This document shows positions 2,600-54,596 of a DNA stretch of 64,000 nt, in pieces. Each line of letters begins with the position of its first letter. Position 1 is the stretch's first letter. The stretch is taken from positions 75,888,001 to 75,952,000 of the forward strand of contig NC_073378.1 of assembly GCF_028641065.1 (NCBI RefSeq), in the 5' to 3' direction. Origin of the DNA: Leucoraja erinacea. Its lineage: Eukaryota. The notes under the pieces are model-generated. The model ran no database searches. It was not told the DNA's origin and worked only from the letters and a program-made list of their open reading frames with translations. Position numbers and translations under genes: made by a program.

Positions 2600-3232
2600 C
2601 TGCAGAAGATTTAAAAAAAATGAATATAAGTAAAATGAAACTGTAAATCTAAATTCATCTTTTGTAAAAAGCAACTCAATTATAGGTCACAGCAAATTCA
2701 ATCATGCCTCAAGTTTTACAATTATTTGATTACCCTTAATGCTTCGGCTTTAAAGTAATAACAGAAGCATTTCCCCTCTTTGACTGATGACTTTGCTTTC
2801 AAGATATAATTTTCCCAATTTCTGAAGCAAAACAATGAGTGCTAATAGCATTTTTGACTGATGAGGGCATCCAGCAGAATCTATTATGATCTTGACCAAT
2901 GAACAAATGTACTCTTTCCAGCAGAAGCCACCTGGCAAGTCAGATATTAGTTTGAGTGGGAAGGTACTACTGGCAGCATCTCTGGATCGAAGGAATGGGT
3001 GATGTTTTGGGTCGAGACCCTTCTTCAGACTTTAGGTTGATTGTTCCCCCCACAGTTCAGGTGCACATCTATCAAAATACCCCAGCATGGGAAGGCACGG
3101 GAAATGCACCACAGACCCAAAATCTAATTTGTTGCCTTACATTATAAATGGGGCACTAGGTGCTGTACTGCATAACAGATCATCAGTGAAATTACCAAGA
3201 TGATTTTCAAGTGTTTTGACGTTGCTGATTAA

Positions 3233-3564
3233 TGGCCCTGTCCCATGGTACGAGTTCATTCCAAGAGCTCTCCCGAGTTTGCCCTGATTCGAACTTGGAG
3301 ATTTACGATAATGGCCGCTCGTCGGTACTCGGGGCTCTCGTGGACATTTTTCAACATGTTGAAAAATCTTCACGAGTCTTCCCGAGCTTACCTGCCATTA
3401 GCGAGTCTTCCCAAGTATCTGCCGTTAGCGTTACGAGCCACTAAGAGACGTCCCCAAGCTCCGACGTACCCGCTATGTTCATTCTCCATGCTTCCCACGA
3501 GTTTGATTTTTTTTTAAAACTCGGGAGAGCTCTTGGAATGAACTTGTACCGTGGGACAGGGCCA
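3233..3564. mobile_element. Non-autonomous PIF/Harbinger-like MITE
   Basis: About 50-bp TIRs (tggccctgtcccatggtacgagttcattccaagagctctcccgagttt and its reverse complement); TAA/TTA flanks; central palindrome tttttcaacatgttgaaaaa. Confidence 0.8.
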
Positions 3565-5099
3565 TTAGGGTTTTTTTTTAAAACAAGTTTAAAAGCAAAA
3601 CTATTCATGGCTGAGCAGCATACTTTCAATTAACAATACCAAAAAGGAGAACATGCCAAAGAAAAATTTAGTTGGGAGTGCTAAAATGTTTTCCTGCAGC
3701 ACTGGGTCATAAAATGGATCTTAAAGCAAAAGAGGCTGAGTCAGGGACATTGAAGGAGAGAATTTCACAGATTTCAAACTGGCTGATTAATGTATGATTA
3801 CTCATGGTGGGGCATAGAGAAGGTAGTGCATAACTGGTCAGTGAAAGAAATTAAGAATTTATGGAAATGTTCCGAAGGAAACCATCACAAGAAATAGGAT
3901 TTTAAATGCAAATCATAGTAGAAGGCAAGAGGGGTGTGAACCCACAATCAAAAAGGATAGTGAGGATGTGGCTAAGGTGTCGACAGGAAATGGGAATGAG
4001 AAATTTGTCTGAACTGCAGCGTGCGTAAGATGGAAACTAGCCAAAATAGCAGTGGGGGAGCACTTCTCGAGGCATACGTGAAGGCTTCATTAGCAGGCAA
4101 ACTCTTGAGCAGGGAATGAAAAGGAAGTTGGCAAACAAAAAGCTGAAGTTGATAGTTTCAAGGAAATCTTGGATTAACCGAGGTTGGATGCTGACCAACC
4201 ACTCACGCAGTAGCTATGTTAAAGATATAGCATTAAGCAGGAAGTTGTGTAATAAAAACAGAAAAACAATGGGAATTTGCACAGCTGAGGAACCATCTGT
4301 GAAGGGAAAAAAATAAAATTAAAGAATATATTGAGTGTGAGCATTGTGGAAACAAATGTAATCAGTGCCTTGCAATTGAAACAGGAAAGGCAGTGAAGGG
4401 CTATGGGGAAAGAGCAGTAAATTTGGGATTGGCCGAATTGCTCTATTGAAAAAGGTGAACTTCGTGTGCCAGTATAAATCTAAGAATCTAAAATTTCTTC
4501 CAAGGGTCAATGATTTAACACTGATCTCTTTTAAGATACTGTCTGACCTGCTAAGTATTTCCGTTAATTATTTTCTAATATTTCATACTCTGCTTTGTAA
4601 AGAAAGCAGCAGCTGGAAACGCCAAATCATTTTGCCTTCCAGATTAAAGAGTTGAAAATGAAATATATTAGCCCAACATTGTTTATGACTGCTTTCTAAA
4701 ATTACTTGTGAGAAATTCAGCACATGCTTGCAGTTTGAACAAGCACAGGGATCCAGGCCCTATAAATGAATCAGCTAATAATTTTATTAAAAATAGATAA
4801 TTGTGCCTGAGCAATGCCATGAAATGGGAATGTCATCAATTCATAGAAAAGTTATGCAAGCTATTCTGATCGCATTCAAAAACCTTGTAAATTCACGCAC
4901 AACTTTCGTGTTTTTCACAAATTAAGCATGTTAAAGTTTGGTTAAAATTCAGCCATTAAATGCTAAATGTTTATATCATCCCATTGAAAAGTCATAAAGG
5001 GTATGAATTGACAAACATAAACTTAGAAAAAAAAGAACCAAGGAAGGTTGAACGAGCATTTCAGAAATAAGTTTTGAAATCCAACAAGTTTTATCGAGG

Positions 5100-19388: not shown

Positions 19389-19511
19389 CATGCAGTTCAT
19401 TGCAAAGTGATTGTGTTGTGTCTGAAGTTCCACAGCATGTTGATGAGTAGCTCCAATCTCTGTATAGCTATTCAAGAAGAGCCCTTTGTTGTGAGAAATC
19501 CAATCAAACAT
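19389..19511 (-). CDS. trio: Trio exon 6-equivalent (123 nt), spectrin repeat
   Basis: Translated by hand: MFDWISHNKGLFLNSYTEIGATHQHAVELQTQHNHFAMNCM; ttattgcag| and |gtaagt; phase 0/0. Confidence 0.97.
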
Positions 19512-19916
19512 CTGCAATAAAAAGAGATTTATTAAACACTTTGAATCTCAATCAGCTTTATGAAACAATTCATTGTGATTGAATTAATTATTTCATTTTA
19601 TTACACACCTGTGATCAAAAATAAAAAAGGTAAAGCATGCAGTACACAGTGGTTGAAGTTAACACACACTACACCTCCTATCAGCTTTATTTGGTCCTCT
19701 AAAAATAGAAGTATGAAATGTTTCTTGTTTCTATTGAAACATGTAATTCCACCATGGAGCTGCAGAAATCAATCAACCATTTGAACATTTAAAGATATAC
19801 CAGCATCTCGCAAACAGTTTTTAAAAAGCATACCTCTTTATTAAATACATAGAAAGAATTGGTGATACAACGTATTTGCCATTGAATCGATGGCAAAACT
19901 AAGTACATTAAATTCA

Positions 19917-21722
19917 TATAACCATATAACCATATAACAATTACAGCACGGAAACAGGCCATCTCGGCCCTACAAGTCCGTGCCGAACAAATTTTTTTCC
20001 CCTTAGTCCCACCTGCCTGCACTCATACCATAACCCTCCATTCCCTTCTCATCCATATGCCTATCCAATTTATTTTTAAATGATACCAATGAACCTGCCT
20101 CCACCACTTGCACTGGGAGCTCATTCCACACAGCTACCACTCTCTGCGTAAAGATGTTCCCCCTCATATTACCCCTAAACTTCTGTCTATCCCTCTCATC
20201 ATTTTAAAGACCTCTATCAGGTCCCCCCTTAACCTTCTGCGCTCCAGAGAATAAAGACCTAACTTATTCAACCTATCTCTGTAACTTAGTTGTTGAAACC
20301 CGGGCAACATTCTAGTAAATCTCCTCTGTACTCTCTCTATTTTGTTGACATCCTTCCTATAATTGGGCGACCAAAATTGTACACCATACTCCAGATTTGG
20401 TCTCACCAATGCCTTGTACAATTTTAACATTACATCCCAGCTTCTATACTCAATGCTCTGATTTATAAAGGCTAGCATACCAAAAGCTTTCTTTACCACC
20501 CTATCTATATGAGATTCCACCTTCAAGGAACTATGCACGGTTATACCCAGATCCCTCTGTTCAACTGTATTCTTCAATTCCCTACCATTTACCATGTACG
20601 TCCTATTTTGATTTGTCCTGCCAAGGTGTAGCACCTCACATTTATCAGCATTAAACTCCATCTGCCATCTTTCAGCCCATTTTTTCAAATGGCCTAAATC
20701 ACTTTGTAGACTTTGGAAATCCTCTTCATTATCCACAACACCTGGTATCATCTGCATACTTACTAATCCAATTTACCACACCATCATCCAGATCATTGAT
20801 GTACATGACAAACAACAAAGGACCCAACACAGATCCCTGAGGCACCCCACTAGTCACCTGCCTCCAACCCGATAAACAGCCATCCACCATTACCCTCTGG
20901 CTTCTCCCATTCAGCCACTGTTGAATCCATCTTGCTATTCCTGCATTTATACCCAACAGTTGAACCTTCTTAACCAACCTTCCATGAGGAACCTTGTCAA
21001 AGGCCTTACTAAAGTCCATATAGACAACATCCACTGCTTCACCCTCGTCAATTTCCCTGGTAACCTCTTCAAAAAATTCAAGAAGATTAGTCAAACATGA
21101 CCTTCCAGGCACAAATCCATGTTGACTGTTCCTAATCAGACCCTGTTTATCTAGATGCTTATATATATTATCTCTAAGTATCTTTTCCATTAATTTGCCC
21201 ACCACTGAAGTCAAACTAACAGGTCTATAATTGCTAGGTTTACTCTTAGAACCCCTTTTAAACAATGGAACAACATGCGCAGTACGCCAATCCTCGGGGA
21301 CTATTCCCGTTTCTAATGACATTTGAAATATTTCTGTCATAGCCCCGGCTATTTCTACACTAACTTCCCTCAATGTCCTAGGGAATATCCTGTCAGGACC
21401 TGGAGACTTATCCACTTTTATATTTTTCAAAAGTGTCAGTACTTCTTTTACTTTGAACCTCATAGTATCCATAGCTACTCTACTAGTTTCCCTTACCTCA
21501 CATAATTCAATATCCTTCTCCTTGGTGAATACCGAAGAAAAAAAATTGTTCAATATCTCCCCATCTCTTTTGGCTCTGCAGATAGCTGTCCACTCTGTCT
21601 TTCCAATGGACCAATTTTATCCCTCGTTATCCTTTTGCTATTAATATAGCTGTAGAAACCCTTTTGATTTACTTTCACCTTACTTGCCAAAGCAACCTCA
21701 TATCTTCTTTTAGCTTTTCTAA
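19917..21722 (-). mobile_element. CR1-clade LINE (young), RT domain to 3' tail, 5'-truncated, with small deletions
   Basis: KSPGPD, NYRPVSLTS, QHGF, DFSKAFDKVPH, GVPQGSVLGP, YADD; (ATATGGTT)n tail; same subfamily as 1367-1874. Confidence 0.96.
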
Positions 21723-22029
21723 CATGCAAAACATTACTTGTTTAGACAGATAACAAATAAGAAAATAACCACTGCAAATTCTTATAAGTGCATCTGCTGC
21801 TATTCTTAACCATTAGGCAGTCACTGCAATTATACAGTACAATGACAATCTCTTAGAACATGTGGTGAAGCATTCTGGGAAGTCAAATAGGGGCAGGCCA
21901 CATACATTATTGGCGCTAAGGAATGGTGATGACGAGATAAAAGTAAAGGTCCAAGTTCATTTTAAAATTTCCTGAAAGTATTAAAAAAAGTCACCAGAAT
22001 GGTTAAGAAGGCATATGGAAAACATGCCT

Positions 22030-23095
22030 TCATAGCTGGGGCTTGACTTGGCCTCCACAGCCTTCTGTGACAAAGAATTCCACAGATTCACCACCCTCTG
22101 ACTAAAGAAATTTCTCACCTCCTTCCTAAAAGAACATCCTTTAATTCTGAGGCTATGACCTCTTGTCCTAAACTCTCCCACTAATGGAACCATCCTCTCC
22201 AAATCCACTCTATCCAAGCCTTTCAATATTCTGTATGTTTCAATGAAGTCCCCCCTCATTCTTCTAAACTCCAGCAAGTACAGGCCCAGTGCTGACAAAC
22301 GCTCATCATAGGTTAACCTACTCATTCCTGGAATCACTCTTTGTAAACTTCCGCTGGACCCTCACCGGAGCCAGCATATCCTTCCTCAGATATGATGTCC
22401 AAAATTGCTCATGATATTCCAAATGGGGGCTTACCAGTGCCTTAGAGCCTCAACATTACATCCCTGTTTTTCTGTACAAGCCCTCTTGAAATAAATGTTT
22501 GTTTTCTTTACTACCTATTCGACCTGCAGATTAACATTTTGGGAATCCTGCACCAGCACTTCCTTTGCACCTCCAATTTCTGGATTCTCTCCCCATTTAG
22601 GAAATAGTCTACGCCTTTATTCCTACTACCAAAATGCATGACTCCACACTTTGCTACACTATATTCCATCTGCCACTTCTCTGCCCACTCTCACAACCTG
22701 CCCAAGTCCTTCTGCTGAGTCCCTGCTTTCTCTACACCACCTGCCCTAACACCTATTGTAGTATCATCCGCAAACCTGGCCACAAAGCCTTTAATCTCCT
22801 CATCCAAATCATTAATATACAACGTGAAGAGTAGCGGCCCCAGCACCGACCCCTTCAGAACCACTAGTCGCTGGCCGTCAACAAGAAAAAGCCCCCTTTA
22901 TTGCCACTCTTTGTCATCTGCCATCCAGCCAACCTGCCAACCTGCTATCCATGCTAGTATCTTCCCTTTGATACCGTGGGTTCTCATCTTAATTAGAAGC
23001 CTCAAGTGTGTCACCTTATCAAAGGCTTTCAGAAAATCTATGTAAAGGTCATCTACTGACTGTTCTTTGTCTGATCTGTTATTTACTTCTTAAAA
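22030..23095 (-). mobile_element. Degenerate CR1 fragment
   Basis: MIPGMSRLTYDERLSALGLYLLEFRRMRGDFIETYRILKG...FFSQRVVNLWNSL. Confidence 0.88.
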
Positions 23096-23250
23096 AAAAA
23101 CATGGCAATTAATCAGCAACAAACAAAGAGGGCATGGGCTTAAGCCGAGAGGAAGGAATATTAAATAGAATTAGAGAGGCAAGTTTTGTATTTACACATA
23201 GATATCTTGATATCTTGAACATGTTGCATGAGGTGGTGGTGAAACCAATA

Positions 23251-24579
23251 CAGTGCCCGCATAATGTTTGGGACAAAGACCCATAATTTATTTATTTGCC
23301 ATTGTACTCCACAATTTGAGATATGTAATAGAAAAAAATCACATGTGGTTAAAGTGCATTGTCAGATTTTATTAAAGGGTATTTTTATACATTTTGATTT
23401 CACCATGTAGAGATTACAGCTGTGTATATGCATAGTCCCCCCATTTCATAATGTTTGAGACACATGGCTGCACGGGTGTTTGTAATTGCTCATGGGTGTT
23501 TAAATGCCTCCTTAATGCAGATATCAGAGAGGTCTCAACACCTAGTCTCAGCATCTAGTCAGAAACACTCTTCAGGAGTCAGGTGTGGATTTGGCAATGA
23601 CCACTGTCCGCAAAAGACTTCATCAACAGAAATACTGAGGCTACACTGCAAGATGCAAACCACTGGTTAGCCGCAAAAATAGGATGGTCAGGTTACGGTT
23701 TGCCAAGAAGTACTTAAAAGAGCAACCACAGTTCTGGAAAAAGGTCTTGAATTGTGGACAGATGAGAAGAAGATTAACATATCAGAGTGATGGAGGAGAG
23801 AAGGAACTGCCCAAGATCCAAAGCATACCACCTCATCTGTGAAACAAGATGGTGGGGGTGTTATGGCCTGGGCATGTATGGCTGCTGAAGGTCCTGGCTC
23901 ACTTAACTTCATTGATGATACAACTGCTGATGGTAGTAGCATAATGAATTCTGAAGTCTATAGGCACATCCTATCTGCTCGTACAAACAAATGCCTCAAA
24001 CCTCATTGTCGGTGGTTCAGTCTACAGCATACAATGATCCCAAACATACTGTTAAAGCAACAAAGGAATTTTTCAAAGCTAAAAGATAATCAATCTTAAA
24101 TGGCCAAGGTCAATCACCTGATGTGAACCCAATTGAGCATGCCTTTTATATGCTGGAGAGAAAACTGAAGGGGACTAGCCCCCAAAACAAGCATAAGCTA
24201 AAGATGGCTGCAATACAGGCCTGGCAGAGCATCACCAGAGAAGACACCCAGCAACTGGTGATGTCCATGAATCGCAGACTTCAAGCAGTCATTGCATGCA
24301 AAGGATATGCAACAAAATACTAAAAATGACTACTTTCATTTACATGACATGGCTGTGTCCCAAATATTATGGTGCCCTGAAATGGGGGAACCATGTATAA
24401 ACACTGCTGTAATTTCTACATGGTGAAACCAATATGTATAAAAATGGCCTTTATTAAAATCTGACAATGTGCACTTCAACTACAAGTGAATTTTTTTCTA
24501 TAACAAATCACAAATTGTGGAGTACAGAGGCAAATAAATAAATGATGGGTCTTTATCCCAAACATTATGGAGGGCATTG
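23251..24579 (+). mobile_element. Tc1-family DNA transposon (long IR/DR TIRs), defective transposase
   Basis: TA|cagtgccc...gggcattg|TA; TIRs of about 220 bp with outer and inner repeat cataatgtttg.gaca; fragments LWTDEKKIN, VKQDGGGVMAWACM, NPIEHAF, LVMSMNRRLQAVIACKGYATKY*; frameshifted and deleted. Confidence 0.93.
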
Positions 24580-24734
24580 TACATTTTGAGGTTTAAGAGC
24601 CATTTAAACAGACATTCAAAATAGGTAAGGAATAAAAGGATACAATCTAATGCAGGCAAACAGGATTAGTGTGCATGGGCAAAAAGATCAGCATGGACTG
24701 GTGGGCTGATGAGACTGTTTCTGTGTGTACAACT

Positions 24735-25360
24735 CTCATTGAATCATACGTTAACCCATGAATGAATGGGTTAACATATGCTGAGTGTTTGACGGCACTG
24801 GGCCTATACTCGCTGGAGTTTAGAAGGATGAGGGCGGATCTCGTTAAAACATACCGAATAGTGAAAGGCCTGAATAGAGGGGATGTCGAGAAGATGTTTG
24901 AATTTATCGTCTACCACCAGAGAAGATAGTTGTACCAGGTACTAAAACAACATTTAACAGACCATGTCATAGGAGCAGAATCTATTCCTTGGAGGGCAGG
25001 AGGCTGAGCGGTGATCTTACAGAGGTGTATAAAATCATGAGGAATAGATAGGGTAGTTGCACAGACTAGGGTATTCGAGATCCATAGGTTTAAGGTAAGG
25101 GGAGGAAAGAATTAATAGGAACCCGAGGGGTGACTTTGTCACTCAAAGGGTGGTGGGTGTATGGAATGAGCTGCTGGAGTAAGTAATTGCGACAAGGCTA
25201 TCACAATGTTTAAGAAACATTTGGACATATACATGAATAGGACATGTGATGTGGGTCAAACACAGACAGGTGGGACTAGTGTGGATGGGACAAGTTGGTC
25301 GGTGTGGGCAAGTTGAACCAAAGGGCCTGTTTGCACGCTGTAAGATTTTATGTCTCTGAT
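24735..25360 (+). mobile_element. Degenerate CR1 3' fragments
   Basis: ctatactcgctggagtttagaaggatgagg; gtgatcttacagaggtgtataaaatcatgagg; gggcctgttt tail. Confidence 0.75.
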
Positions 25361-25393
25361 TAGGGCATTTGGCACATCAAGTCTGCTCCCGCG

Positions 25394-26005
25394 GTAGACA
25401 CAAAGTGCTGGAGTAACTCAGCAGTTCTCAATTCCCCAACTCTGTGCATCTACCCGATCTATTCCTCTCAGCAGCAACATCTCTAGAGAAAAAGAATAGG
25501 TGACATTTCCAGATGGAACCCTTCTTCAGACAGTAACCTGCTGAGTTACTCCAGCATTTTGTGTCTATCTTCGGTATAAACCAGCCTGCAGTTCCTTCCC
25601 ACACATTGAGTCTGATCCACTTCCAGCTCTTAGACTAAAATTCAAATTGAACCAAATGTTTCTCCCCCATGCGTTAGGGTGAGTTTGACGAGTATTATCC
25701 GTGACAATGTCATTCTTCAACCCAATTTACAGCCTTTATTTGTGTACGACGATTCCCTGTGGGTAAGTTGAAACTTTACTTTTGTTTATTAATCTGCAGA
25801 GTACCAAGTCACAGATAGACAACATAAGATGGAGTAACTCAGCGGGCCGGGCCAGGTTGCAGCTCTGGAGAGAAGGAATAGGTGATGTTTTGGGTCGAGA
25901 CCCTTCTTATCCTTTTTTCCAGATATGCTGCCTGTCCCGCTGAGTTACTCCGGCTTTTGCTCTCTCCTCGTGGGTTTAAACCAGCATCTGCAATTCCTTC
26001 CCACA
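25394..26005. mobile_element. Two palindromic (inverted) Penelope-terminus units, about 25394-25605 and 25815-26005
   Basis: Each unit has gagtaactcagc...cccttctt followed by the opposite-orientation gctgagttactcc...aaaccagcatctgcagttccttcc. Confidence 0.75.
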
Positions 26006-26146
26006 TGCTTCAAGTCGCTGCAGGTGAGAATCGTAGCTTGTGTGTAAGCAAGTCGAGGCGGGTTACACTACAGGAGAGCCCGGTGTGGGGACTCGACCCA
26101 GTCGAGGGACAGCCGCTTCTTGCTCAGGCTTCAGGAAGCCAGTGCA

Positions 26147-26360
26147 ATGGAGAGGTACGAGGCTGCCATGGTCCTTGGAGCACTCGGGAATGCCATGGGC
26201 TATTATAACGTTACGGGTCACGGGTGCAACAAAGCTGGATTCAAGCTGACCGAGTCTGATTTATCAGCAGAGATAGACATATTGGTTTTAAAACCATTTC
26301 AGTGGAGGGCTCCGTTCGATACGCTCATGCACATGGCGACCGCTGAAGCTTTGGTTAGTG
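26147..26360 (+). CDS. First coding exon of a divergent ADP-ribosylhydrolase family gene (ADPRHL1/ARH2-like), nested antisense in trio intron 5; rest of gene not found, functional status unknown
   Basis: gcaATGG start; 71 open codons MERYEAAMVLGALGNAMGYYNV...IDILVLKPFQWRAPFDTLMHMATAEALVS plus 1 nt, then donor G|GTGAGT. Matches the ARH1/ARH2 N-terminus (ME.. AAM.L...GDALGY.N ... W.VSD[DN]T.MH.ATAEAL). Length and phase equal ADPRHL1 exon 1 as I recall it. Confidence 0.82.
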
Positions 26361-26914
26361 GTGAGTTTTCTACTCTCGAGTCTTATTCTTTATTGTTTAT
26401 GTATGACTCCAGTTTGTCCCATGGTATTGTTATCCATCTTGCTTGCCTTACACACTGCCCGCCCACCAACACGCTTCATTCACACGAATACATGACACAC
26501 ATAATCCTCGCGTGTTGTGTACTATGCTGGCACTAAAGTAGAAATAAACGCTTCGGGTATCACTGCTCCAGTGCTGCCCACCTCTTGCTTCGGGCGACTC
26601 TCTAACAACTTGCAGTTTTTAACATGCGATTTTATCCATCGCATTTTCCGTTTAGTTTCACAAGCTCTCGGAAATGCTCAACATTCATGAACGCGCCATT
26701 ACAAAACGAATCGTATCCCTTTCGTCCAGATTTGGATGAGAAATCTAATCTTCGGATTACTTCACAATACCGACCTTAGTTTCAATCTTCATGGTAACTG
26801 TGAACGTACTGACTGGGGTACCTTGGAAAGTAGACCCGAGGTCCTGTCAAAGCACATCCTCCCCCCCACCCCAGTTACTTTTCAAAAGATGCCATCATTA
26901 AAAAATACCTTAAT

Positions 26915-27105
26915 TCACGGTTGGCTCAAGAGTAACTCGGGAGACGAACTTGGAACATCGCAGAAATGACAAGTGAATGGCAAACTTGTCATACCCGTGG
27001 GAACTCGGTTAAACTCTTGATCATACACTTGGAATCTCGTACACAACCACGAGTCTTTCACTGGGGGTACCTCGTCGGTCAGCTTGCACCGTGAGACAGG
27101 GCTAT
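26915..27105. mobile_element. Degenerate Harbinger-like MITE fragment (one TIR)
   Basis: Ends cttgcaccgtgagacagggcta, resembling the right TIR cttgtaccgtgggacagggcca at 3543-3564. Confidence 0.45.
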
Positions 27106-28544
27106 AAGGACCTTTTTTCAGGCAAATTTCAAGAGAGAGTTAGATGCGACTCTTAGGGCCAAAGGAGTCAAAGGATATGGGGAAAAAACAGAAGAGGGTA
27201 CTGATTTTAGATGATCAGTCATATTGAAAGTGCTGGATTGTAGTATGCCAAATGGCCTACTCATGCATCCATTTTTTTCTATGTTTTTCTCTATAGAAAT
27301 TGCTCTTTCAATCTACCGTTTATGCCAACTATGATGCCTATCTATGCTGACCTACCTGCTTATATTAAGTTCAGATCCCTCTTCACCTTTTATATCTAAG
27401 CCTATGTCCAAAGTACCTGACTTTATGACAAACTGCCGGAGGAGGGTAGTTCCGTTTATTTGGTTCATAAAAGCTTTTGTTTGCGTACTATCCAGTCAAA
27501 AAAATGACTATACGTGATAACAATCAAGCCATCCTCTTAAACAATCAAGCCATCTGTACACAGATAAAGGATAAAGTCTGAGGTAGTTGTTGCAGGTACT
27601 ATAACAACATTTATAGGTTCATGGATAGGAAAGGTTTGAAGGGATGTGGGCCAAACACAGGCAGGTAAGACCAGTGTAGATGGGGTTTCTTGGTCAGCAT
27701 AGGCAAGCAGGGCCGAAGGGCCTGTTTCCGTGTTGTATGACTTTATGCCTTTAAGTGGTGGTAGCCTTGTTTAAGGCTGTGGATTCCAGAATATGAAAAC
27801 TTGATATTATAATTTAATGTTAAAAGAGAATGTGCTGTTTATCACTGAGAAGCAAATTGTTACTTGATTAGTGAATGGTAAAATCTCATTAACATTAGCA
27901 GCAATCAAATGTTGCAGTATTTAAGATAGTGTTAAATTTTAAGATAATTTCACTGGTAGTTTTTTTTTCCAATTCATAATTTTTATGTACAGATTTGGTA
28001 CATAAACCACAAAGGAACATAAATCATTACACTAATTATTACACTAAATGAAAACACTAATTACTTGAACTGCATGGGTGTTTTCCAAACAATAAACTTG
28101 AATGTTTTATTAATAGTCACACAGCATGGAAATTGGTCCTCTGGCCTAACTCGACCATGCCGACCAAAATGCCCCATCTAAGCTAGTCCTATTTGCCCGC
28201 CTCGGCATTGGCCCACATCCCTCTAATCCTTTCCTATCCATGTATCTGTCCAAATGTGTTTTAAATGCTTTTAGAGTAATAAGATGGCTGAGTAATGATT
28301 AAGAAGCAGGTAAATACTACATTCTAGTAAGCTACTAGATTAAAGTAGAATGAATGGTCAAGAATTGCGGTTTTCCATGAGATGGTAAAGGAAAATAGAG
28401 AAATCTCTTGAAATTTCTAAAATTTCTCTCAGTCTGTTGCCTCAGACAATATTCAAATTGGTGTAATGACGATTAGAAAGAAGAGGAGTTAGCACAAATG
28501 GTTAAAGGAACATAAGTTTGGATCTAATAAGAAATGGGGGAGTA

Positions 28545-28778
28545 TACTACACACACTATCCTACACACACTAGGGACAATTTTACATTTGTACCAAGCCA
28601 ATTAACCTACAAACCTGTACGTCTTTGGAGTGTGGGAGGAAACCGAAGATCTCAGAGAAAACCCACGTGCTCACGGGTGGAACATACAAACTCTGTATAG
28701 ACAACACCCGTAGTTGGGGTCTCTGGCTCTATAATCGCTGTAATGTAGCAACTCTACCGCTGCGCCACCATGCCGCCC
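28545..28778 (-). mobile_element. HE1-like tRNA-derived SINE
   Basis: Minus strand gggcggcatggTGGCGCAGCGGtagagttgct (A box); body gtctatacagagtttgtatgttc...ggtttgtaggttaattgg. Confidence 0.8.
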
Positions 28779-30149
28779 GTATATATTGGATTGATTACCT
28801 TATCTGATCCTAAATGAGCTGAAACACATAGTTCGTATTAATTCCGAATTCAGAGGTGGTTAATACAAGTCAAATCAGTCAATTAACTCTGTAACAACTT
28901 ATTTGCAGTCAATACTAGGGTATAATTTGACATTTGTACTCAGAAGTGGCATGAGTCTATATAAGATTGATAAGGGGAACATCCAAATCCTAATTATAAC
29001 GCTTTAGCAAAGGTAAAAATGGCACCCACCACACCCAAAAAGAGAATTTGACACCCAATACAAATGGAGAATTATTTCAAGATACATTCTCAGCATCAAA
29101 GCAAGAGGTCTACTAATGCTTGTCAGATTGTTTGTTGAACAATTCCTTCAGGGGGCATATTAGCAACGATTTCTGATGGTATTGATGTCCCCAGATCGAG
29201 ATAGTCACTATTTATAGGGAGTTTCACATTCATTGAATTTAAACAAAGTGTTGAGACCATGCCAGGAAAGAGCCTATGATGCTAACATTTCTTGATTGGG
29301 AACTCCCATGGAGTTGTACTTGAGTACTCCTCGCGTAATTTACTGCCAAATTAAGAGTAGCAACAAACAAATCGGTTTGCTTTGGTCTAATGAATAACTT
29401 ACCTTGCTCTGATTAATGTGGGAAACATTATGCAACCATTATGGTTGCTTTTCAATAACCAGAAACAAATTTGACAGGTAATGAAGCCATGAATTGGCAG
29501 CATGCATTGTACATAATGACCAAATGCAAAGCAAGTGTGAACACAGTTCACCCTCATTATTATGGACTTCTTTATAATGGATTTCAGTTAAAGCATACAG
29601 AGCATCCACACAATAATCATACACCAATATCTCGAACAATTTTTGGAGTTCATCCATGCGGTCTTTAAATCTTTACCATTGCATCTCCACCCTCAACCCT
29701 TTAAGTATAATTTGCCAGTCTATCTTAGCCAATTACCATCTCATACCTTCAACTATGATCATCAGCTATGATCTAATGGTGGATCAAAATGGATGGGCCG
29801 AATTCTTCTCCTATGTCTACTCCTAAAGTCTACAGAGGCTGTGCACGCTGGTCCTAGACTCTCCCACTACTTGTAAATGTCCTCTCCCCATCCAATCTAT
29901 ATTTGCCTTTTTGTGCCTTGTCTTTTCTTTTGTACAAATTTGAACATATAACTTTGTTCTTTTCTGTAAGTCCGTTTTTCAGTTTAAAGTTTTGTCTGCA
30001 GTCCTAGTTTGATGATTCATCAGGAAACTGGCTGCAGTCTAGTTTCAATGCATCATGACACTTTGGAATAGCTTTCTTTGTCTGGATGCAGAATAAAGTG
30101 CAAAACTAAAAGTGAGGAGGGAAAGTGATGTCCGAGAAGAAAGTGAAGT

Positions 30150-31800
30150 ATGAAAGGATATCTTTCAAAAGGTGGCAGGTGGAATGTAATATGGTAAAAT
30201 TTGAAGTTCTAAACATTGGCATGACATACAGAAAATAGCATGTTTAAATGGTCAGAAACTTCTAAACGTCATTGTACAAAAGGATCAGTGTGCTGGTTCG
30301 TGTGATTCAGAACGTTCACATGGGAAAACAATGATTGTACAAAAGTGAGAAGCCCTGCTACATTTGTACAGAGCCTTGGTCTAAATCCAAGGTGCATTAT
30401 AAACTTTCTATGCTAATTTTGCGATTAAGCGTTTGTCCCACAAAACACTGAGATAGATTAGCCTTTTCCTGTAAACAGGAGGAACCTCAGATGCTGGTTT
30501 ATAAAAGAAGTCTCAACCCGAAAGGTCATTTATCCACTTTCTCCAGAGATCCTGCCTGAGCTGCTGAGTTACTCCAACGGTCTTTCTCGCCTGTTCCTAC
30601 TAGATTTAATAAGATTAAGTTGTTCATCATGAAAATAAAAGGCTTGGAGAGGGATGGAAAGGTTAGAACTTGAAAGGCTTCTCAAAGGTGAACGCAAAGT
30701 TTAGTTTATTGCCAAGTGGACTAAGGTACAGTGAAAAGCCTTTTGTTGCAAGCTATCCAGTCAGTGGAAAGACTACACATGATTACAATCAGGCCGTCCA
30801 CAGTGTACAGACTGTACAAAGAGTCTACAAAGAGCAACAGATAGGTTAAGAGGCTCGGCAAAGATATGGCAGGGAGTACAATGTGCGGAAATGAGGTGAT
30901 CCACCGATAGAAAAACAGAATTTTGTTTAGAAGACAAGACATTACAGATTTTTTTTTAATATGGAAGAATGGGTATACTTGTACATGAAACACCGCGTTA
31001 GCATGCAGGTACAGCAAGTGATCAGAAAGGCAAATGGAATAACAGACTTCATTAAAAAGGGAACAGAGCATGAAAGTTGAGACATTTTGATAAAACTTGC
31101 AGGGTCCTGGAGAGACCATGCATGGAGTACTGCATACAATTGTAATCTCGTTATTGAAGCTGGGATACATTTAAGCTGGGAGGCTGTTCAGAAAAGATGC
31201 ATAGATTGATTGATGAGATGAATGGCGTGGTCTTAATGAGGAAAGTTAGAGAAGTTTTGGGCTATACTCGTTGGTATTTAGAAAAATAAGAGGGAGTTTT
31301 ATTGATCCAAATTTTATTGAACTAGGAAGCCTGGTCTATAATAACTAGCTGCCATTTTAGTTCAAGATAAGGAATAATTCCTTTTCAGAGAATCATTGAT
31401 CTTTAGAATTCTCTCCCCCAGAGAGCTGGAGACTAAAATGTTAAATATATTCACGGCTTGGATAGACAGATACCATGCTTATCGAGGAATCAATGGTTGT
31501 GGGGAACAAGCAAGGAAGTAGAGCTGATGCTAAGATCAGATTTGCCATGACCTTATCAAATGGTGAAGCAAGATCAAGGGTCGGCATGGTCTACTTTTTT
31601 TTTCTTATCTTATGTTCACAACTTTTCAGGGTAGGGATTCAAAATTGAGTTGAGAAGATATTTCTTTACTCTGGGGCTTATTAATATGTGGAATTCTCCA
31701 AAGCAGAACAATATGCAACTGCACATATATAAGACAGGGATCAATGGATGTATGGAGAGTCATGAGATGAAGGGATAAGGGAAAAGTGGGCCTTTGTCAT
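30150..31800 (+). mobile_element. Old CR1 remnants with nested Penelope terminus (30475-30580) and a Rex-type 3' tail (30700-30810)
   Basis: Degenerate CR1 C-terminal and 3' UTR motifs; tttagtttattgccaagt...gtacagtgaaaagc tail. Confidence 0.55.
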
Positions 31801-32143
31801 TGAATTGCCCATGATCTTTTTGTGCAGCAGAGGTGTTTGAGAAAAACATGGCTTTGGTCATGGATAATGCAGGATTATGCCACTACATGTATTCAATGAA
31901 TAGATATCTTACTTATCCAACTGTACTTCAACAAAAAAAATGGCCTTGCTCCAAACCTGTAGGGCTGCACCACAATTAAAAATCTACTATCATTTTGCTC
32001 CGGGTTAATTGAAGCTCCGAGGTACCAGTTTATAACCTGCCGTTCAGTGCTGATCTGTTATTTTTTGATTCTGTGTTTTGACTATAATTGTGCTTTCACC
32101 GAGATTCATAGTATCTGCTGTGAAAATTTGTCTGTTCTCAGTA

Positions 32144-33458
32144 CAGGTGCACAACCTTTTATCCGAAGTTCCAAATAACGAAAACCTCCGAATAGCGACA
32201 TTTTTTCAGTCCTTGAAGAAAGGTCCTTGAAAACGTTCACCGAGGACGGCCCGCAGAGGTGACAGCGGAACCTCCGGTCGGTCCTCGAAGAAAGGGGAAC
32301 TAAATCCCCATTCATAAAAGAGAAGGTGAGGGTATATTGCGCGGGAGGGTTAATAATTGACAATCTTCTGCTGCCTGCCAGCTGAGTTAAAAAGTTCCCA
32401 CGGTAGACACGTTACACAGTGTATCGTGAGTCTTGCATGAGAACTTTTTAACTCAGCGGGCAGGCAGCAGCAAATTGCCGCTCCCCTAAGTTTCAATATG
32501 AAGGAACCCCTCTGATTCCAGGCCATGTGTGTGACACCCTTCCCTCCCCTCTCCAGCTCCCCGCCCATTGACAGCTTCGCGGGGGTTTTGCAATGAAAGA
32601 GAAACGTTGAGCTAGTGCCAGTCACCGGAGGTCAGGACCAACGGGACACTGTGCCCCCAGGCCCACTGCAAGCACGGATCTGGGATCTCTGGGATGTGCT
32701 TGCAGTGGGCCAGGGGGTCGGTGTCAATGAGGGTTCGCAGCTCGGGCAAGCGATTATGCCACTTGTCTCTGTAGCGGCCCATATGAGCGGGTTCCTGTTG
32801 GCTGAATCTATTGCCGTCCCCCTGGACAGGGTTGAGAGACGTCAGAAAACCAGAAGCCGCTCCCCGATTGTGCGCCGCTACAGCATCAAGTGGCAGTTCG
32901 CCCACAGCCCGAGCTGCGCCCCCTCATCGGGACACCGACCCCCAGGCCCACTGCAAGCACGGAGATCCCAGAGACTCACAGCCAGCAACAACTCTAGCCC
33001 AGCCCCGCTCCAACTCCAGAGGAACCCGGGTTGCAGATGAGAGGGCGCAGCTCGGGCTGTGGGCGAACTGCCACTTGTCGCCTTAGCGGCGCATCGGGCA
33101 GCGGATTCCTCTGGAGTTGGAGGGACAGGGAGACACAGCAGCTTTTGAGAATGGTGGGCAATCACTTCCAAAGTTCTGCCCACACAGTCAGTACACCTCT
33201 TCCTACACTTGTCTCCCGCACTAAGATTATCTCGCAGAGAATGATCCCAGCCTAACCCTCCCTATTCTCTCCTATTCTGCAAGAAAAAACTACATTGAAG
33301 ACTCAAACTCGCGTTCGAGTAACTGCCGGGATCGAGGCGCAAACTCGCGACCAGCCGTTAAAATCTACGCTAAAAATCTTCCATTCCGAAAGCCGAAAAA
33401 TTCTGAATTACGAAAAGTGTCTGGTCCCAAGGCTTTCGGATAAAAGGTTGTGCACCTG
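32144..33458. mobile_element. Non-autonomous Tc1/mariner-superfamily (pogo/Tigger-like) element
   Basis: Perfect 24-bp TIRs caggtgcacaaccttttatccgaa, TA on both sides, GC-rich interior with hairpins, no transposase ORF. Confidence 0.88.
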
Positions 33459-33469
33459 TATAAGTCTCA

Positions 33470-35170
33470 GAAAATGTCCACTAATCAGTGGAGAACAAAA
33501 TGCCTCGAATGAAGAAGTTAACATAGTAAAACAAGAAGGAGAAATTGTTGGGAACGAAAGCTTGTAATTTCCAGGAACACGATAAATTTTCAAGATATCA
33601 AAGACATATTAGATGCATTGACAGTCATCTTCCAAAGTGCCATTGATTTTTTTTGGATTTGATTTTGAATGGCTCCTATAAATTGGAAAGTAGTAAATTA
33701 ACCCCACTATTTAAGAAAGGAAGGAGGGAGGAAATAGGAAACTACAGTTAGCCTGACATCAATATGAAGGAAAACATGGGAATATATTATCAAAGTGGTA
33801 GCACTCACAAAATAATAATAGAATCGGACAGCTTCAAAGTAGGTCAATGAAAGAGAAATGTTTGATAAATCTTTTTTGAGGTTGTAATAAGCAAAGTGAA
33901 GGGGAACCAGTTGATGTGTGTTTGAACTTTCAGAAAGCCTTCAATAAGTTCCATACAAGAGATTATTAAATAAAATTAGAGCATATGAAATTGTTGGCAA
34001 TATATTGGTATGGATCAGGGATAGATTAGCACATAGAAAACAGAAATAAACAAGTTATTTTTGGATTGTGGGATCAGGGCCAGAGTTTCAGCTGCACACA
34101 ATAAACATCAATGGTTTGGATGACAGGGTTAATGTGAGATTAAGTACTCTGGGAGCAAAACAAAACCAGAAACCATTGAAAGTTTTAAAAGGCATTCAGA
34201 GTGTCCTATAAATTACTAAAAGACAATGGGCAATTAGAGCAAGCAATGGAAAGGCCCTGAGGTATTGTTGTAGAACAGAGAATGTTGGGGCGGCAGGTAC
34301 ATAGTTCCATGAAGTGGCCCCACAGTGGACAGGACTGTGAAAGCGGCACTTGAGATGCTTGCCGTTACCAGTCAAGGTATTGAGTACATGAGTTGGGACA
34401 CCTCATTTTACAGACGTACAAGATTTTGGGACGTAATGTTACAGATATACAAGGTGTTGGGACATCATGTTACAGATGTACAAGACAATGGTAACTTTTG
34501 TGAATATCCTAAATACATTTGAAGTATTGGCTACATTTCTAGACACCCTGCTATAAGAAGGATGTCATTAAGATGCATAGCATGCAAAAAGGATTTGCGA
34601 AGTTGTGACTGGACTGGAGGGTTTAAATTACATCAACAGGCTGGGTAAACTGGGTCTCTTTTCTCAGGAGCAGAGAATGCTGAACGACAATCTTACAGAG
34701 AGTGGTATATAAAATCATGAAGGACAACGTTTAAAAGACATTTAGACAGGTTCATGCTAACGATTGGATGGCTATAGGCCAGGCATTGGCAAGCCAGACA
34801 ACCTCATTTAGGCAACTTGGTCGGCACAGATAAGGTGGGCCAAAGGGCCTGTTTCCATGTTGTATAGCTCTAAGATCCTATAGCTCCAAGTAAAAGACAA
34901 ATGATACGTTGACCAGTATTAGGATCCAAGAATAAGAGTCAATCTTGCTGCTTCATGGTAGGGTGCTGGTGAGCTGCCTTTGGAATATTTTATCCTGGTT
35001 TGCTCTCCCTGCCCAAGGGGAAATATATTTGCAACAGAGTGCAACAAAGTTTTATTCCGTTGATTCTTGATATGGGAAGTTTGTGCTAATAGAAGAGATT
35101 AAGCAGATACTCTCCAAATTTCAATGGCTGAGAGGTGAACTCATTGAAAACTTCAAAATTCTAAGGTGGG
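33470..35170 (+). mobile_element. Cluster of old CR1 RT and 3' remnants
   Basis: ccactatttaagaaagg (PLFKKG) and ctttcagaaagccttcaataagttcca (FQKAF.K.P) motifs. Confidence 0.7.
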
Positions 35171-36189
35171 AAAATTGAGTAGAAATTTAGCTGCAATCTT
35201 GTGAACAGTACACCAGGCTGGATGAGTCACACCCAATCCTACTTACATTCTTGTGTTCTTTTCATGTGAAGGGTTTAAAAACATGTTTAAAGCCTTGATT
35301 TTTTTAACTCAACTTGAATTTGTTATGGGTAAAAGATCAGGATGAGAGACAATGGATACAAACTTGATGTTCCGTGTGGAAACACAGGAACTGTCCCCAG
35401 CATTATATATGATACAGATGAAAGAATACATCCAAGTAAATTGATGACACCAAGTTAACAAATAAGGGACAACATTCAAAAGGGACACTGACAGATTTTG
35501 AAAACTGACAGATTGAAAAATCTGCAACACTATGAACTTCAATTAGAAGTATGAGTCTTTCCTATTTGGATCCAAGAAAATTTAGGGACCCAAGTACATA
35601 AATCTCCCACGACTGACAGGTACAAGATACAATGAAAGAGGTTAATGGGATAGCATCCTCTATCTTTAAAGATTCACAAAAAAACAGGAAAAGGTTTGGA
35701 ATTTAAGGATGTTTTATTAATTTTAAGCTTTGGATCAAGCCCATTTGGTTCAGTTCTGAACACCACTTTTCAGGTTATGGGGTGATGACAGGAGGAATAC
35801 CTTCAAACTAAATGTAATGGAAATATGGGAAATGTCACCCCTCTGCCCCTTTACCCCTTCCTTCTACTCCTCCTATTCCCCCCCCCCCCTCACCTTCCCC
35901 ACCCCCACACAACGCCCATTTCCCCCACCACTATCTTCCCATAACATACCGATTCCTGCCATTACAAAGAGTGCTGGAACCATAATCTTTTTAACCCTGT
36001 GAACCAAAAGCTGGAAAAGACTGTTTTCCTCAGTTGTCACAAATAAGATGGACTGAATGGCTTCCTCGTGTACTATAAATTTCAATGGTTCTCAGCACAC
36101 TTGAATTTAAATTAACTTTGGAAATAACAATATCACTCCAAAACCAGCCAAGATTGTTAATGCAACCTAAATGGCTTATCAATCCTTAC

Positions 36190-36702
36190 CTTTTCTGCAT
36201 CTTGTTCAAACAGCCTTAGCTGAAAGCATTGATCGAGTTTCAGCTTGCGTATATGCCACATCTGATGCAGATGCTGTCTGGTTGAGTGTAGTCTGTCCAA
36301 CATACTGGACACTTTTGGTACAAGGCCCTGAAAATCTGCATTCCCTGATATCGAGTTTTTATGGGGAAAACTTTCACTGCTTTGAATCCTTTGCAGCAAT
36401 TTTTGCCCTTCTAGATCTAGTTCTTCAATTGGAGCTTTGATTACTTTCTTCTTCAGCAGCGAATGTTCATCAATCATCTTTCTTGCTCCTTCCAAGTCCT
36501 GAGGGAAGTCTTTTTTGGCGAGCATTTCCTGTAGCTCTTCCAGCCTGGACAACATGTGTGATGCATTGCTTATAAAGTCTTCAAAGGCCACACGAATTTC
36601 AATCCATTCATCGTGGTTGTAGTCCAGGCAGCCATCAAACTCCGGAGTAAGCTGCGATGGGTCAACTACTTTGGTGAGACCTTCTATGGACACCATGTTG
36701 GT
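36190..36702 (-). CDS. trio: Trio exon 5-equivalent (513 nt), end of SEC14 and first spectrin repeat
   Basis: TNMVSIEGLTKVVDPSQLTPEFDG...LRLFEQDAEK; gcttttag| and |gtaagg; phase 0/0. Residues fit TRIO better than KALRN as I recall them. Confidence 0.97.
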
Positions 36703-43899: not shown

Positions 43900-46500
43900 A
43901 GGAAGTAAGTTTATTGGCCAAGTATTCACATACAAGGAATTTGTCTTGGTGCTCCACCCACAAGTAATAACATGACATACAGTGACAGTTACGAATGACT
44001 CAGAAAACACTAAACATAAATAATAATAAAACATTAATGATAAAACACCATTGATCAAGCATGTGAACCAACAAAATACCAGATCAAAGGGAGGCTACAG
44101 ATTTTTGACTGTTGAGTAGAGCAACTACTCGTGGATAAAAACAGTTTTTATGTCTGGCTGTGGCAGCTTTGACAGTCCGGAGTTGCCTTCCAGAGGGAAG
44201 TGGTTCAAAGAATTTGTGGCCAGGGTGAGAGGGGTCAGAGATGATCTTGCCCGCTCGCTTCCTGGCCCTTGCAGTGTACAGTTCATCAATGGAGGGAAGG
44301 TTGCAGCCAATAACCTTCTCAGCTGATCGGATAATAATAATAATAACTTTATTTATAAAGCACTTTTAGGTAACATCAGTTACCACAAAGTGCTGTACAA
44401 TGGAAATCAACAAAAAGTTATCACAAAACTAAAACCATTAAAACGACAGGACTATAAAAACAGTAAAAAATTAAAAGACATTAAAAGCACTAAAACAGGA
44501 ACAAAGTCTCAGCCAGTGTCGAAAGCCAGTGAATAAAAGTGCGTTTTCAGGGAGGATTTAAAGATGGACAGTGAAGGGGCCTGTCTGATCTGCAGCGGCA
44601 AGGTGTTCCAAAGTGCCGGTGCAGCAACAGAAAAGGCTCTATCCCCTCTGAGCTTCCGCTTAGACCTTGGTACCTCAAGGAGCAGCTGATCCGCTGACCT
44701 GAGGCACCGGGTAGGAGCATATAGGTGGAGCAGCTCAGAGAGGTAAGGCGGGGCGAGGCCATTCAAAGATTTAAAAACAAATAAAATAATTTTAAAATGA
44801 ACTCGAAAGTGCACTGGAAGCCAGTGAAGGGAGGCCAAAATTGGCGTAATGTGCTCCCTCTTTCGAGTTCCGGTTAAAAGGCGAGCGGCAGCATTTTGGA
44901 CCAACTGGAGACGCGCCAACGAAGCTCGCGAGACTCCAGTGTAGAGCGCATTACAGTAATCCAGCCGAGATGTAATAAAGGCATGGATTACTGTTTCAAA
45001 ATGCTGCCGCTCCAGAATAGGCTTCACCTTTGCCAGCTTCCTTAGGTGAAAGAAGCTGGACTTAACCACTGCGCCTATTTGCTTATCTAATTTAAAATCA
45101 CTGTCCATCATAAAACCCAGGTTTAAAACTGTTGGCTTTTCAAACACTGCAAGTGGACCCAAGTCAACAGAGGGAGGTTCACGGCAGCCATTAGGGCCGA
45201 ACAAAATCACTTCCGTCTTTTTTTCGTTAAGTCCCAGAAAGTTTAAGGCCATCCAGGACTTAATGTCCTCAAGACAAGACAGAAGTGATTTTAGGGAATA
45301 ATTATCTTCTTTCCTGAGTGGCATATACAACTGGCTATCATCCGCGTAAAAGTGAAAGGAGATGCCATGCCTTCTTAAAATTGAGCCCAGTGGAAGTAGA
45401 TAAAGGGAGAAAAGCAGGGGGCCTAAAATTGAGCCCTGTGGAACCCCATATGCCAAGGGAGCAGAGGAGGATTCAAGGCCACCAAGGCTTACACGCATGG
45501 TTCTGTCTGCCAGATAGGACCTGAACCATCCCAGGGCACTGCCACAGATGTCCACTTGTTGCTGTAATCGGGAAATTAATATTCCATGGTCCACAGTGTC
45601 GAAGGCGGCAGATAGGTCCAGCAAGACAAGAACCACATAATTACCGGAGTCGTTTGCCAGGAGGATGTCATTAGAGACCCTTAGCAAAGCCGACTCTGTG
45701 CTATGCATAGCCTTGAAACCAGACTGAAAGACCTCCCGGATGTTGTGCTCATCCAGGAAGAGTTTCAGCTGGGCATAAACTACTTTCTCCATGATTTTTG
45801 AGATAAATGGCAGCTTTGAGATTGGCCTAAAATTGGCCAGGACAGTCTGGTCCAGGCCTGGTTTCTTGAGTAATGGCTGCACTACAGCATGTTTAAATTT
45901 TATGGGGACAACCCCGGAAGACAAGCTACTGTTTATGATGGCAAGGACCGAATGCCCTATGCTCGGGAAGACCTCTTTAAAAAGAAGAGGAGGGACAGCA
46001 TCACATGGGGAACCCGATGGCTTGATATGGGTAACCACATCCTCTAGACCCGACAGCGTCAGGGGAACAAACTTATCAAATGCCACCCGGCAAGGGGCCA
46101 GAACAGGTGGGTCTGAGGCAGGAGCTGAGATAAGAGCCCTAATAGAAACAACCTTGTTTATAAAGAAGTGCAGGAAGTCGTTGCACATGATTCACTGCAG
46201 CCTCCAGGTGTCGTGCTTGGTGGCTGAGCCAAACCAGACCATGATGGAGAAGGTGAGGACAGACTCCACAATGGCTGTGTAGAATTGTACCATCATTGCC
46301 TGTGGCAGATTGTGCTTCCTCAGCTGTCATAGGAAGTACATCCTCTGTTGTGCATTTTTGACTGTGGAGTCGATGATAGACCCCCACTTAAGGTCCTTGG
46401 AGATGATTGTTCCCAGGAACTTAAAATACTCCACAGATGTGAGTATGGTGTTGTTGATGGTGAGTGGGGTGAGGGGAGGGGGAGCTCTCCTAAAGTCCAC
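43900..46500 (-). mobile_element. Rex1/Babar-like LINE 3' portion, split by an L2 insertion (pieces 43900-44332 and 46187-46500)
   Basis: The two pieces join as ...ctcagctgatcgg|atgattcactgcag...; minus-strand FYTAIVESVLTFSIMVWFG motif; aataaacttactt tail. Confidence 0.8.
44331..46188 (-). mobile_element. L2-clade LINE, 5'-truncated, with uninterrupted 559-codon RT/C-terminal ORF and (ATT)n tail
   Basis: NFRPISKLPFISK, QSGF, LLDLSAAFDTVDH, GVPQGSILGP, FYADDSQLY, SRLDYCN, LQLVQNAAARLL, HITPILASLHWLP. Confidence 0.95.
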
Positions 46501-54521: not shown

Positions 54522-54596
54522 CCGAGAGGAATGCAACCTTCTCCTTCAGTATTGGAAGGACCTCCATCGCCTTCATCTCATCATTTTTACGAAAAC
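54522..54596 (-). CDS. trio: Trio exon 2-equivalent (75 nt), (G)FRKNDEMKAMEVLPILKEKVAFLS(G)
   Basis: Translated by hand (not in the ORF track). Acceptor ...ccctttcag| and donor |gtaaac; phase 1/1. Peptide and length match human TRIO exon 2 as I recall it. Confidence 0.96.

Follow-up and report, generated by a model that had tools for sequence, protein, structure and literature searches.

A multicopy PIF/Harbinger Pack element of the little skate carries the first exon of a third ARH1/ARH2-type gene

We analysed a 64,000-nucleotide stretch (the window) of the Leucoraja erinacea genome in which an open frame resembling the first exon of an ADP-ribosylhydrolase (ARH) gene lies inside an intron of another gene. 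There is little doubt in our view that this exon sits in a left-truncated copy of a non-autonomous PIF/Harbinger element, carrying the promoter, exon 1 and the start of intron 1 of a gene on contig C14. The copy likely arrived by cut-and-paste and is likely neutral, making no gene of its own. The family to which it belongs is a multicopy Pack-TIR, a known kind of element, and its copy number is far above that of the published vertebrate cases. The features of the window are given in Table 1.

The captured exon and its surroundings

The exon described in the original prediction can be read directly from the letters of the window. It has a strong-context ATG at 26147 (gcaATGG), 71 open codons and, after 214 nt, an end at 26360 followed by a phase-1 donor (G/GTGAGT, 26361-26366). 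We found that the peptide matches the human ARH1 structure 3hfw (E 3e-9), lemur ARH2 (31/71 identities without gaps, E 3e-16) and P0002, a 1053-aa protein labelled at NCBI as an uncharacterized little-skate protein (68/71 identical). Judged by sequence, the ARH homology of the peptide is far beyond chance, as had been proposed. A Pfam search with the 72-aa peptide gave zero matches at E<=1, and the entire parent protein matched Pfam ADP_ribosyl_GH at E 1e-33. When proteins were searched with the exon, 12 matches were obtained among longer proteins, all from cartilaginous fishes, and the best of these was P0002 at 96%.

The host gene reads along the minus strand and has exons at 54549, 41730, 39568, 36702, 19511, 10389, 6751 and 2599, and the exon at 39568 matches the kalirin Sec14 domain (E 7e-34). 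From human sequence and numbering we take the host to be trio rather than kalirin and the intron to be intron 5. The ARH exon is on the plus strand between host exons 36702 and 19511 and is therefore antisense to the host intron, in agreement with the original description. By eye, a Tc1-like remnant was also seen at 23452-24580 and a LINE reverse-transcriptase frame (560 aa open) at 44509-46191. A very abundant palindromic SINE-like repeat occurs at 25395-25603 and 25813-26005, with one copy inside the captured promoter. Rfam on 24000-29000 gave three weak matches, far under the cut-off and each on this repeat, and a tRNA scan detected no tRNA. The core of the repeat presumably resembles the hammerhead motifs of Penelope-like elements, for which Rfam gave no match.

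Table 1. Coordinates of the captured exon, its transposon and its host intron in the window
Feature	Position	Strand	Remark
Host intron of a trio/kalirin-family gene, between exons starting 36702 and 19511	19511..36190 (ends approximate)	-	
Captured upstream/promoter DNA of the C14 parent (parent -532..-1)	25619..26146	+	52-bp segment -136..-83 still present
Captured coding exon 1 (214 nt) of a third ARH1/ARH2-type gene	26147..26360	+	5/214 nt unlike parent
Donor GTGAGT with the captured first stretch of parent intron 1, reaching about +742	26361..26905	+	
Right arm of a non-autonomous PIF/Harbinger element	26897..27104	+	Ends in CCGTGAGACAGGGCTA (terminal inverted repeat)
TAA, right half of the expected 3-bp target-site duplication	27105..27107	+	Left half gone with the left arm
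Small separate MITE without cargo	3230..3567	.	51-nt inverted ends related to the ends of the Pack element

We found that positions 25619-26905 are a 91.4% copy (1.29 kb) of the parent from -532 to +742. The parent has 8 exons on the minus strand of C14 (C14:3,197,642-3,232,043), several exons of P0002 map there at 100%, and C14 is the sole location of parent exons 2-8 in the genome. The window exon is thus an orphan duplicated exon, which was one of two readings put forward earlier. Since the copy was made at the DNA level and includes both intron and promoter, it is not a processed pseudogene, as had been argued.

The other reading was an undescribed ARH paralogue nested antisense in the trio-like gene, and the intact exon with its ADPRHL1-type intron position would agree with it. 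However, parent exon 2 starts about 420 bp past the captured end and is absent from the window copy, which enters a transposon arm instead. The remaining exons 2-7 had been thought to be perhaps diverged, lost or situated beyond 64000 in trio intron 1. When six ARH proteins were compared with 94 kb (the window plus 10 kb to its left and 20 kb to its right), only the window exon matched at E<0.1. With the full gene on C14 and 45 or more such transposon-borne sites in the genome, a nested gene is already refuted within the present assembly and we give it practically no chance.

The parent gene and its relatives

The parent is a third gene of the ARH1/ARH2 type, without a name, which is kept in cartilaginous fishes, coelacanth and early ray-finned fishes. 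We built an ARH tree from 39 rows chosen out of about 215 matches. The parent clade held 17 rows (100/100) from sharks, rays, chimaera, coelacanth, reedfish, sturgeon, gar, tarpon and eels, and was distinct from the arh2 and ARH1 rows. Of the tetrapod and other teleost rows included in the tree, none fell inside this clade, and those groups may have lost the gene. The genuine skate arh2 lies at C13:29.19-29.21 Mb and clusters with the arh2 proteins of sharks and rays; it and ARH1 (C39:2.48 Mb) are genes separate from the parent. The suggestion of an ARH paralogue other than ADPRHL1 was correct. The fear that this exon might be the only ADPRHL1 exon 1 of the species can be dropped, since the actual ADPRHL1 is on C13 and is only 40% identical.

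Like ADPRHL1/ARH2 and ADPRH/ARH1, the parent has a PF03747 domain, and the parent and the C13 arh2 both have a phase-1 intron after 214 nt. Unlike ADPRHL1 and ADPRH, it carries a tail of about 700 aa in one large exon. P0002 has PFDT and GESDA where mollusc ARH1 has SDDT and GDSDS, and the aspartate pairs Asp55/56 and Asp302/304 are not both kept. The di-arginine loop of ARH2 (GRRGHDA), described in the cited part of PMC7390403, is missing from the parent-type proteins of sharks and rays. Since the first catalytic aspartate position is lacking, as is the di-arginine loop in sharks and rays, the parent protein is likely another pseudoenzyme. In the assembly the reading frame of the parent is shifted twice, in a T run of exon 4 and near the end of exon 8; these shifts are either errors or decay. 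A C-terminal motif conserved in other rays is found in the next frame of the skate parent.

The neighbours of the parent on C14 are a DCUN1D-family gene about 18 kb upstream and a LAMP-family gene about 120 kb downstream. ADPRHL1/ARH2 has LAMP- and DCUN1D-family neighbours as well: on C13 a LAMP gene lies 0.87 Mb from arh2, and reptile gene models fuse DCUN1D with ADPRHL1, the two being adjacent there. No DCUN1D was found within 75 kb upstream of skate arh2 (G000:C13:29,205,660-29,280,000). The shared neighbours suggest that the parent may be an ohnologue of ADPRHL1; the tree does not fix the position of the parent relative to lamprey and hagfish.

The element family, its ends and its cargo

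A search of the skate's own genome with the exon gave 63 matches, which group into 48 sites spread over 22 contigs, leaving 45 sites after three real genes were excluded. This count is a minimum, and two of the sites, both on the unplaced contig C732, are near-identical. Among the 48 loci fetched, 46 contained an exon piece, 30 contained at least 200 of its 214 nt, and 10 contained it on both strands. Transposon arms accompany the exon at 45 of these 46 loci (both arms at 21, the left at 14, the right at 10, none at 1). No matches to the arms were found in 60 kb of the parent locus, where the captured stretch has a CpG o/e of 0.85 versus 0.48 in its surroundings.

The linear form of the element is about 2-2.3 kb and consists of the left arm, a first filler, parent DNA from -664 to +517, a second filler and the right arm. 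In a second form the cargo is internally duplicated as an inverted repeat with arms of 344-370 bp that are 91-95% alike (three examples), and numerous deletions are found around its centre. In the window copy, the cargo from -532 to +742 is fused straight to the right arm at about 26897-26905, and the 52-bp segment -136..-83, absent from other copies, is present. We found no left arm for this copy within the same 94 kb, and its left end is a truncation. The identical cargo-arm junction is found at C1:147.9 Mb and also in a single-depth contig (26640-26936) from X1, a DNA run of another organism, and so did not arise as an assembly artefact. The same chimeric structure stands at distant sites with different flanks, which is the mark of a multicopy Pack-TIR.

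The window carries the family state at 23 of the 24 columns at which at least 60% of copies depart from the parent, and a tree of 34 rows of copies is star-like. Together these indicate one capture and one burst. In three other organisms, reads over the exon fall into many contigs with high summed depth, depth not being equal to copy number, and this hints that the family may be shared.

We considered whether a plain segmental duplication or a retro-transduction had come to lie beside a MITE by chance. The absence of a left arm in the window would fit such an event, as would the abundance of the arms, since a left-arm search of the genome gave 2,851 first-look candidates (40 of which were scored). 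However, an arm is present at nearly every exon-bearing locus, the exact junction recurs at another site and the diagnostic changes are common to the copies. Retro-transduction is further opposed by the inclusion of both upstream DNA and intron, and a poly(A) tail was not seen. We regard a chance neighbour as very improbable and keep to the Pack element.

The element ends in terminal inverted repeats, left AACCCCTGTCTCACGG and right CCGTGAGACAGGGCTW, which are 84-88% alike over about 56 nt (two complete copies scored); the window has only the right one. An exact 3-bp target duplication was found in 15 of 26 complete elements (11/16 of those carrying the exon) and was absent from 11. In 13 of the 15 it was TTA or TAA, which the cited part of PMC8903248 gives as the mark of PIF elements. 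Other duplication lengths among the 26 were few (2-bp in 2, 4-bp in 1, 5-bp in 0). PiggyBac and Kolobok, which leave a 4-bp TTAA, were rejected because an exact duplication of that length was present in just 1/26. Penelope-like or LINE transduction was likewise rejected as the source of the inverted copies, since the arms and the 3-bp duplications account for the ends. As the window copy has neither a left arm nor a full target duplication, its own insertion is read from the right end.

The genome contains 151 DDE_Tnp_4 matches. Among these we found a 5.1-kb autonomous Harbinger family (L104:4875-9977, L105:783-5865, L108, L110 and L111) with an open frame for a 446-aa DDE transposase and, on the opposite strand, a second ORF of MADF type (in L105, DDE_Tnp_4 E 7e-35 and MADF E 5e-5). 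Its ends are 85-87% identical to the left arm over the terminal 47 nt and 68-70% over 182 subterminal nt. Some copies are 97% alike, so the family was recently active. We infer that this family mobilises the Pack elements in trans, although its ends are related rather than identical and it may therefore be a cousin of the true partner. A second element with a Harbinger transposase (L113:3743-7171, L114:2883-6298) is 3.4 kb long with 680-bp inverted repeats, and its two copies are 99% alike.

The same arms carry other DNA. We examined 32 arm loci and found complete elements at 20 of them. Their inserts measure 0.6-4.2 kb and form 10 groups that, shared filler aside, have no relation to the ARH cargo. 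Thus one arm pair carries at least 11 cargo groups. One group contains a pentraxin exon (Pfam E 4e-30; L074:1041-1562 and ten other loci), and an arm was present at all 11 fetched loci outside C26. Its source, L139 (G000:C26:8,878,899-8,880,436), lies in a pentraxin cluster on C26 and supplied part of an exon with its flanks. We scanned 300 of 453 cargo ORFs with Pfam (150/239 and 150/214) and found no transposase among them. Nothing but pentraxin and LINE reverse transcriptase or endonuclease scored above the cut-offs. A multicopy cargo of about 1.7 kb at L076, L079, L080, L149 and L160 had no Pfam match.

Decay of the copies and comparison with known systems

In 32 copies, including the window and with one near-duplicate dropped, we counted 154 nonsynonymous, 53 synonymous and 8 stop changes, where the flank spectrum predicts 124, 54 and 5.5; this gives a family dN/dS of about 1.26 (p 0.17). 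Changes from the commonest base in 24 copy arms amounted to 139/5082 in the exon and 289/10704 in the flank, or 2.7% each. Since the exon decays as the flank does and dN/dS is about 1.3, we conclude that the exon is neutral cargo.

Compared with the parent, the window copy differs at 5/214 exon positions (2.3%) versus 39/527 upstream and 40/528 in the intron (flanks about 7.5%). When these changes were split by lineage, the parent side held 2/214 in the exon and 28/774 in the flank, so constraint on the parent explains most of the contrast. The window side held 3/214 and 24/776 (p 0.24, a weak test on one copy).

One might contend that the captured promoter and exon 1 were exapted in the window and drive an antisense or chimeric transcript within the host gene. 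The ATG, frame and donor are kept together with CpG-rich upstream DNA (o/e 0.76), the exon is among the three least changed of 24 and one amino-acid change from the commonest state of the family, the locus is apparently common to another organism (X1), and some Pack-TIRs form chimeric RNAs according to the cited part of Tan et al. (2021, PMC8277862). However, 12 of the 29 other full-span copies have an equally intact ATG, open frame and donor, so these are not special to the window copy. The conservation of the exon is not significant and no ARH exon lies downstream. An RNA run from another organism (X22), of which 7.3 million reads or about 6% were used, gave 0 reads on 26015-26818; reads from the parent exon would also fall there, so the tissue may simply not express the gene. 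We consider exaptation improbable and prefer neutral cargo.

Exon 1 of other rays has 78-85% protein identity to that of the skate and the skate copies are about 2-3% from the commonest state of the family, which places the capture after skates split from other rays. Absolute dating was rejected because the shark rate of 7e-10, given in the cited part of PMC10587355, is per generation and the resulting age would contradict phylogeny.

We propose that the CpG-rich 5' end of the C14 gene was taken up once by a non-autonomous element, in the skate lineage and most likely through a template switch or gap repair. Cut-and-paste would then have multiplied the element, which is the route suggested for multicopy Pack-TIRs in the cited part of PMC8277862. 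Later subfamilies would have lost -136..-83, exchanged +546..+742 for another filler and often doubled the cargo into an inverted repeat. With both segments and the basic right arm still in place, the window copy is likely an early form whose left end was lost later. A bolder possibility is a plant-scale Pack-Harbinger system in skates, with hundreds to thousands of elements that shuffle promoters and exons, in which some of the 45 or more cassettes are transcribed as new host first exons or as palindromic hairpin RNAs that silence the ADPRHL1 paralogue; we think this unlikely as a whole.

The skate family makes it possible to study in a vertebrate how captured fragments originate, are rearranged into palindromes and now and then turn into exons. 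The family is also a warning to annotators, as intact-looking first exons in the skate are transposon cargo. The parent, filed in databases as 'uncharacterized' or as ADPRHL1, is probably an ancient sister of this cardiac pseudoenzyme, and its binding cleft, which appears divergent, may provide a natural comparison for what ADPRHL1 binds. Our literature search found no description of the skate element or of the ARH paralogue; Repbase and Dfam were outside this search, so the element may already be named.

In plants, DNA transposons take up gene fragments as a matter of routine. In the cited part of Gisby and Catoni (2022, PMC8903248), the Pack-PIF and Pack-MULE elements of maize and rice have TTA/TAA duplications and common arms with differing gene-fragment cargo, as in the skate, but their hosts are plants whereas the skate family is in a cartilaginous fish. 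Turmoil-1 of C. elegans, as given in the cited part of Sela et al. (2008, PMC2572040), is a Harbinger with pieces of two protein-coding genes, inverted copies and decay without selection, as in the skate. In contrast, it has its own transposase and 9 copies, while the skate element is non-autonomous and its inverted duplication is internal and variable. The closest likeness is to the animal multicopy Pack-TIRs of Tan et al. (2021), which in the part cited have host DNA between TIR ends at distant sites with distinct target duplications. That part lists 4 multicopy cases among 281, with an example of 3 copies and a median cargo of 224 bp; across 100 animal genomes captures were almost always single-copy, with none in elephant shark, and the 21 PIF/Harbinger rows came from frogs and alligator. 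Unlike these, the skate has a single coding-exon cargo of 1.2-1.4 kb repeated at 45 or more sites, and one pair of arms carries no fewer than 11 cargo groups. The scale of capture in the skate is plant-like and is rarely reported in vertebrates.
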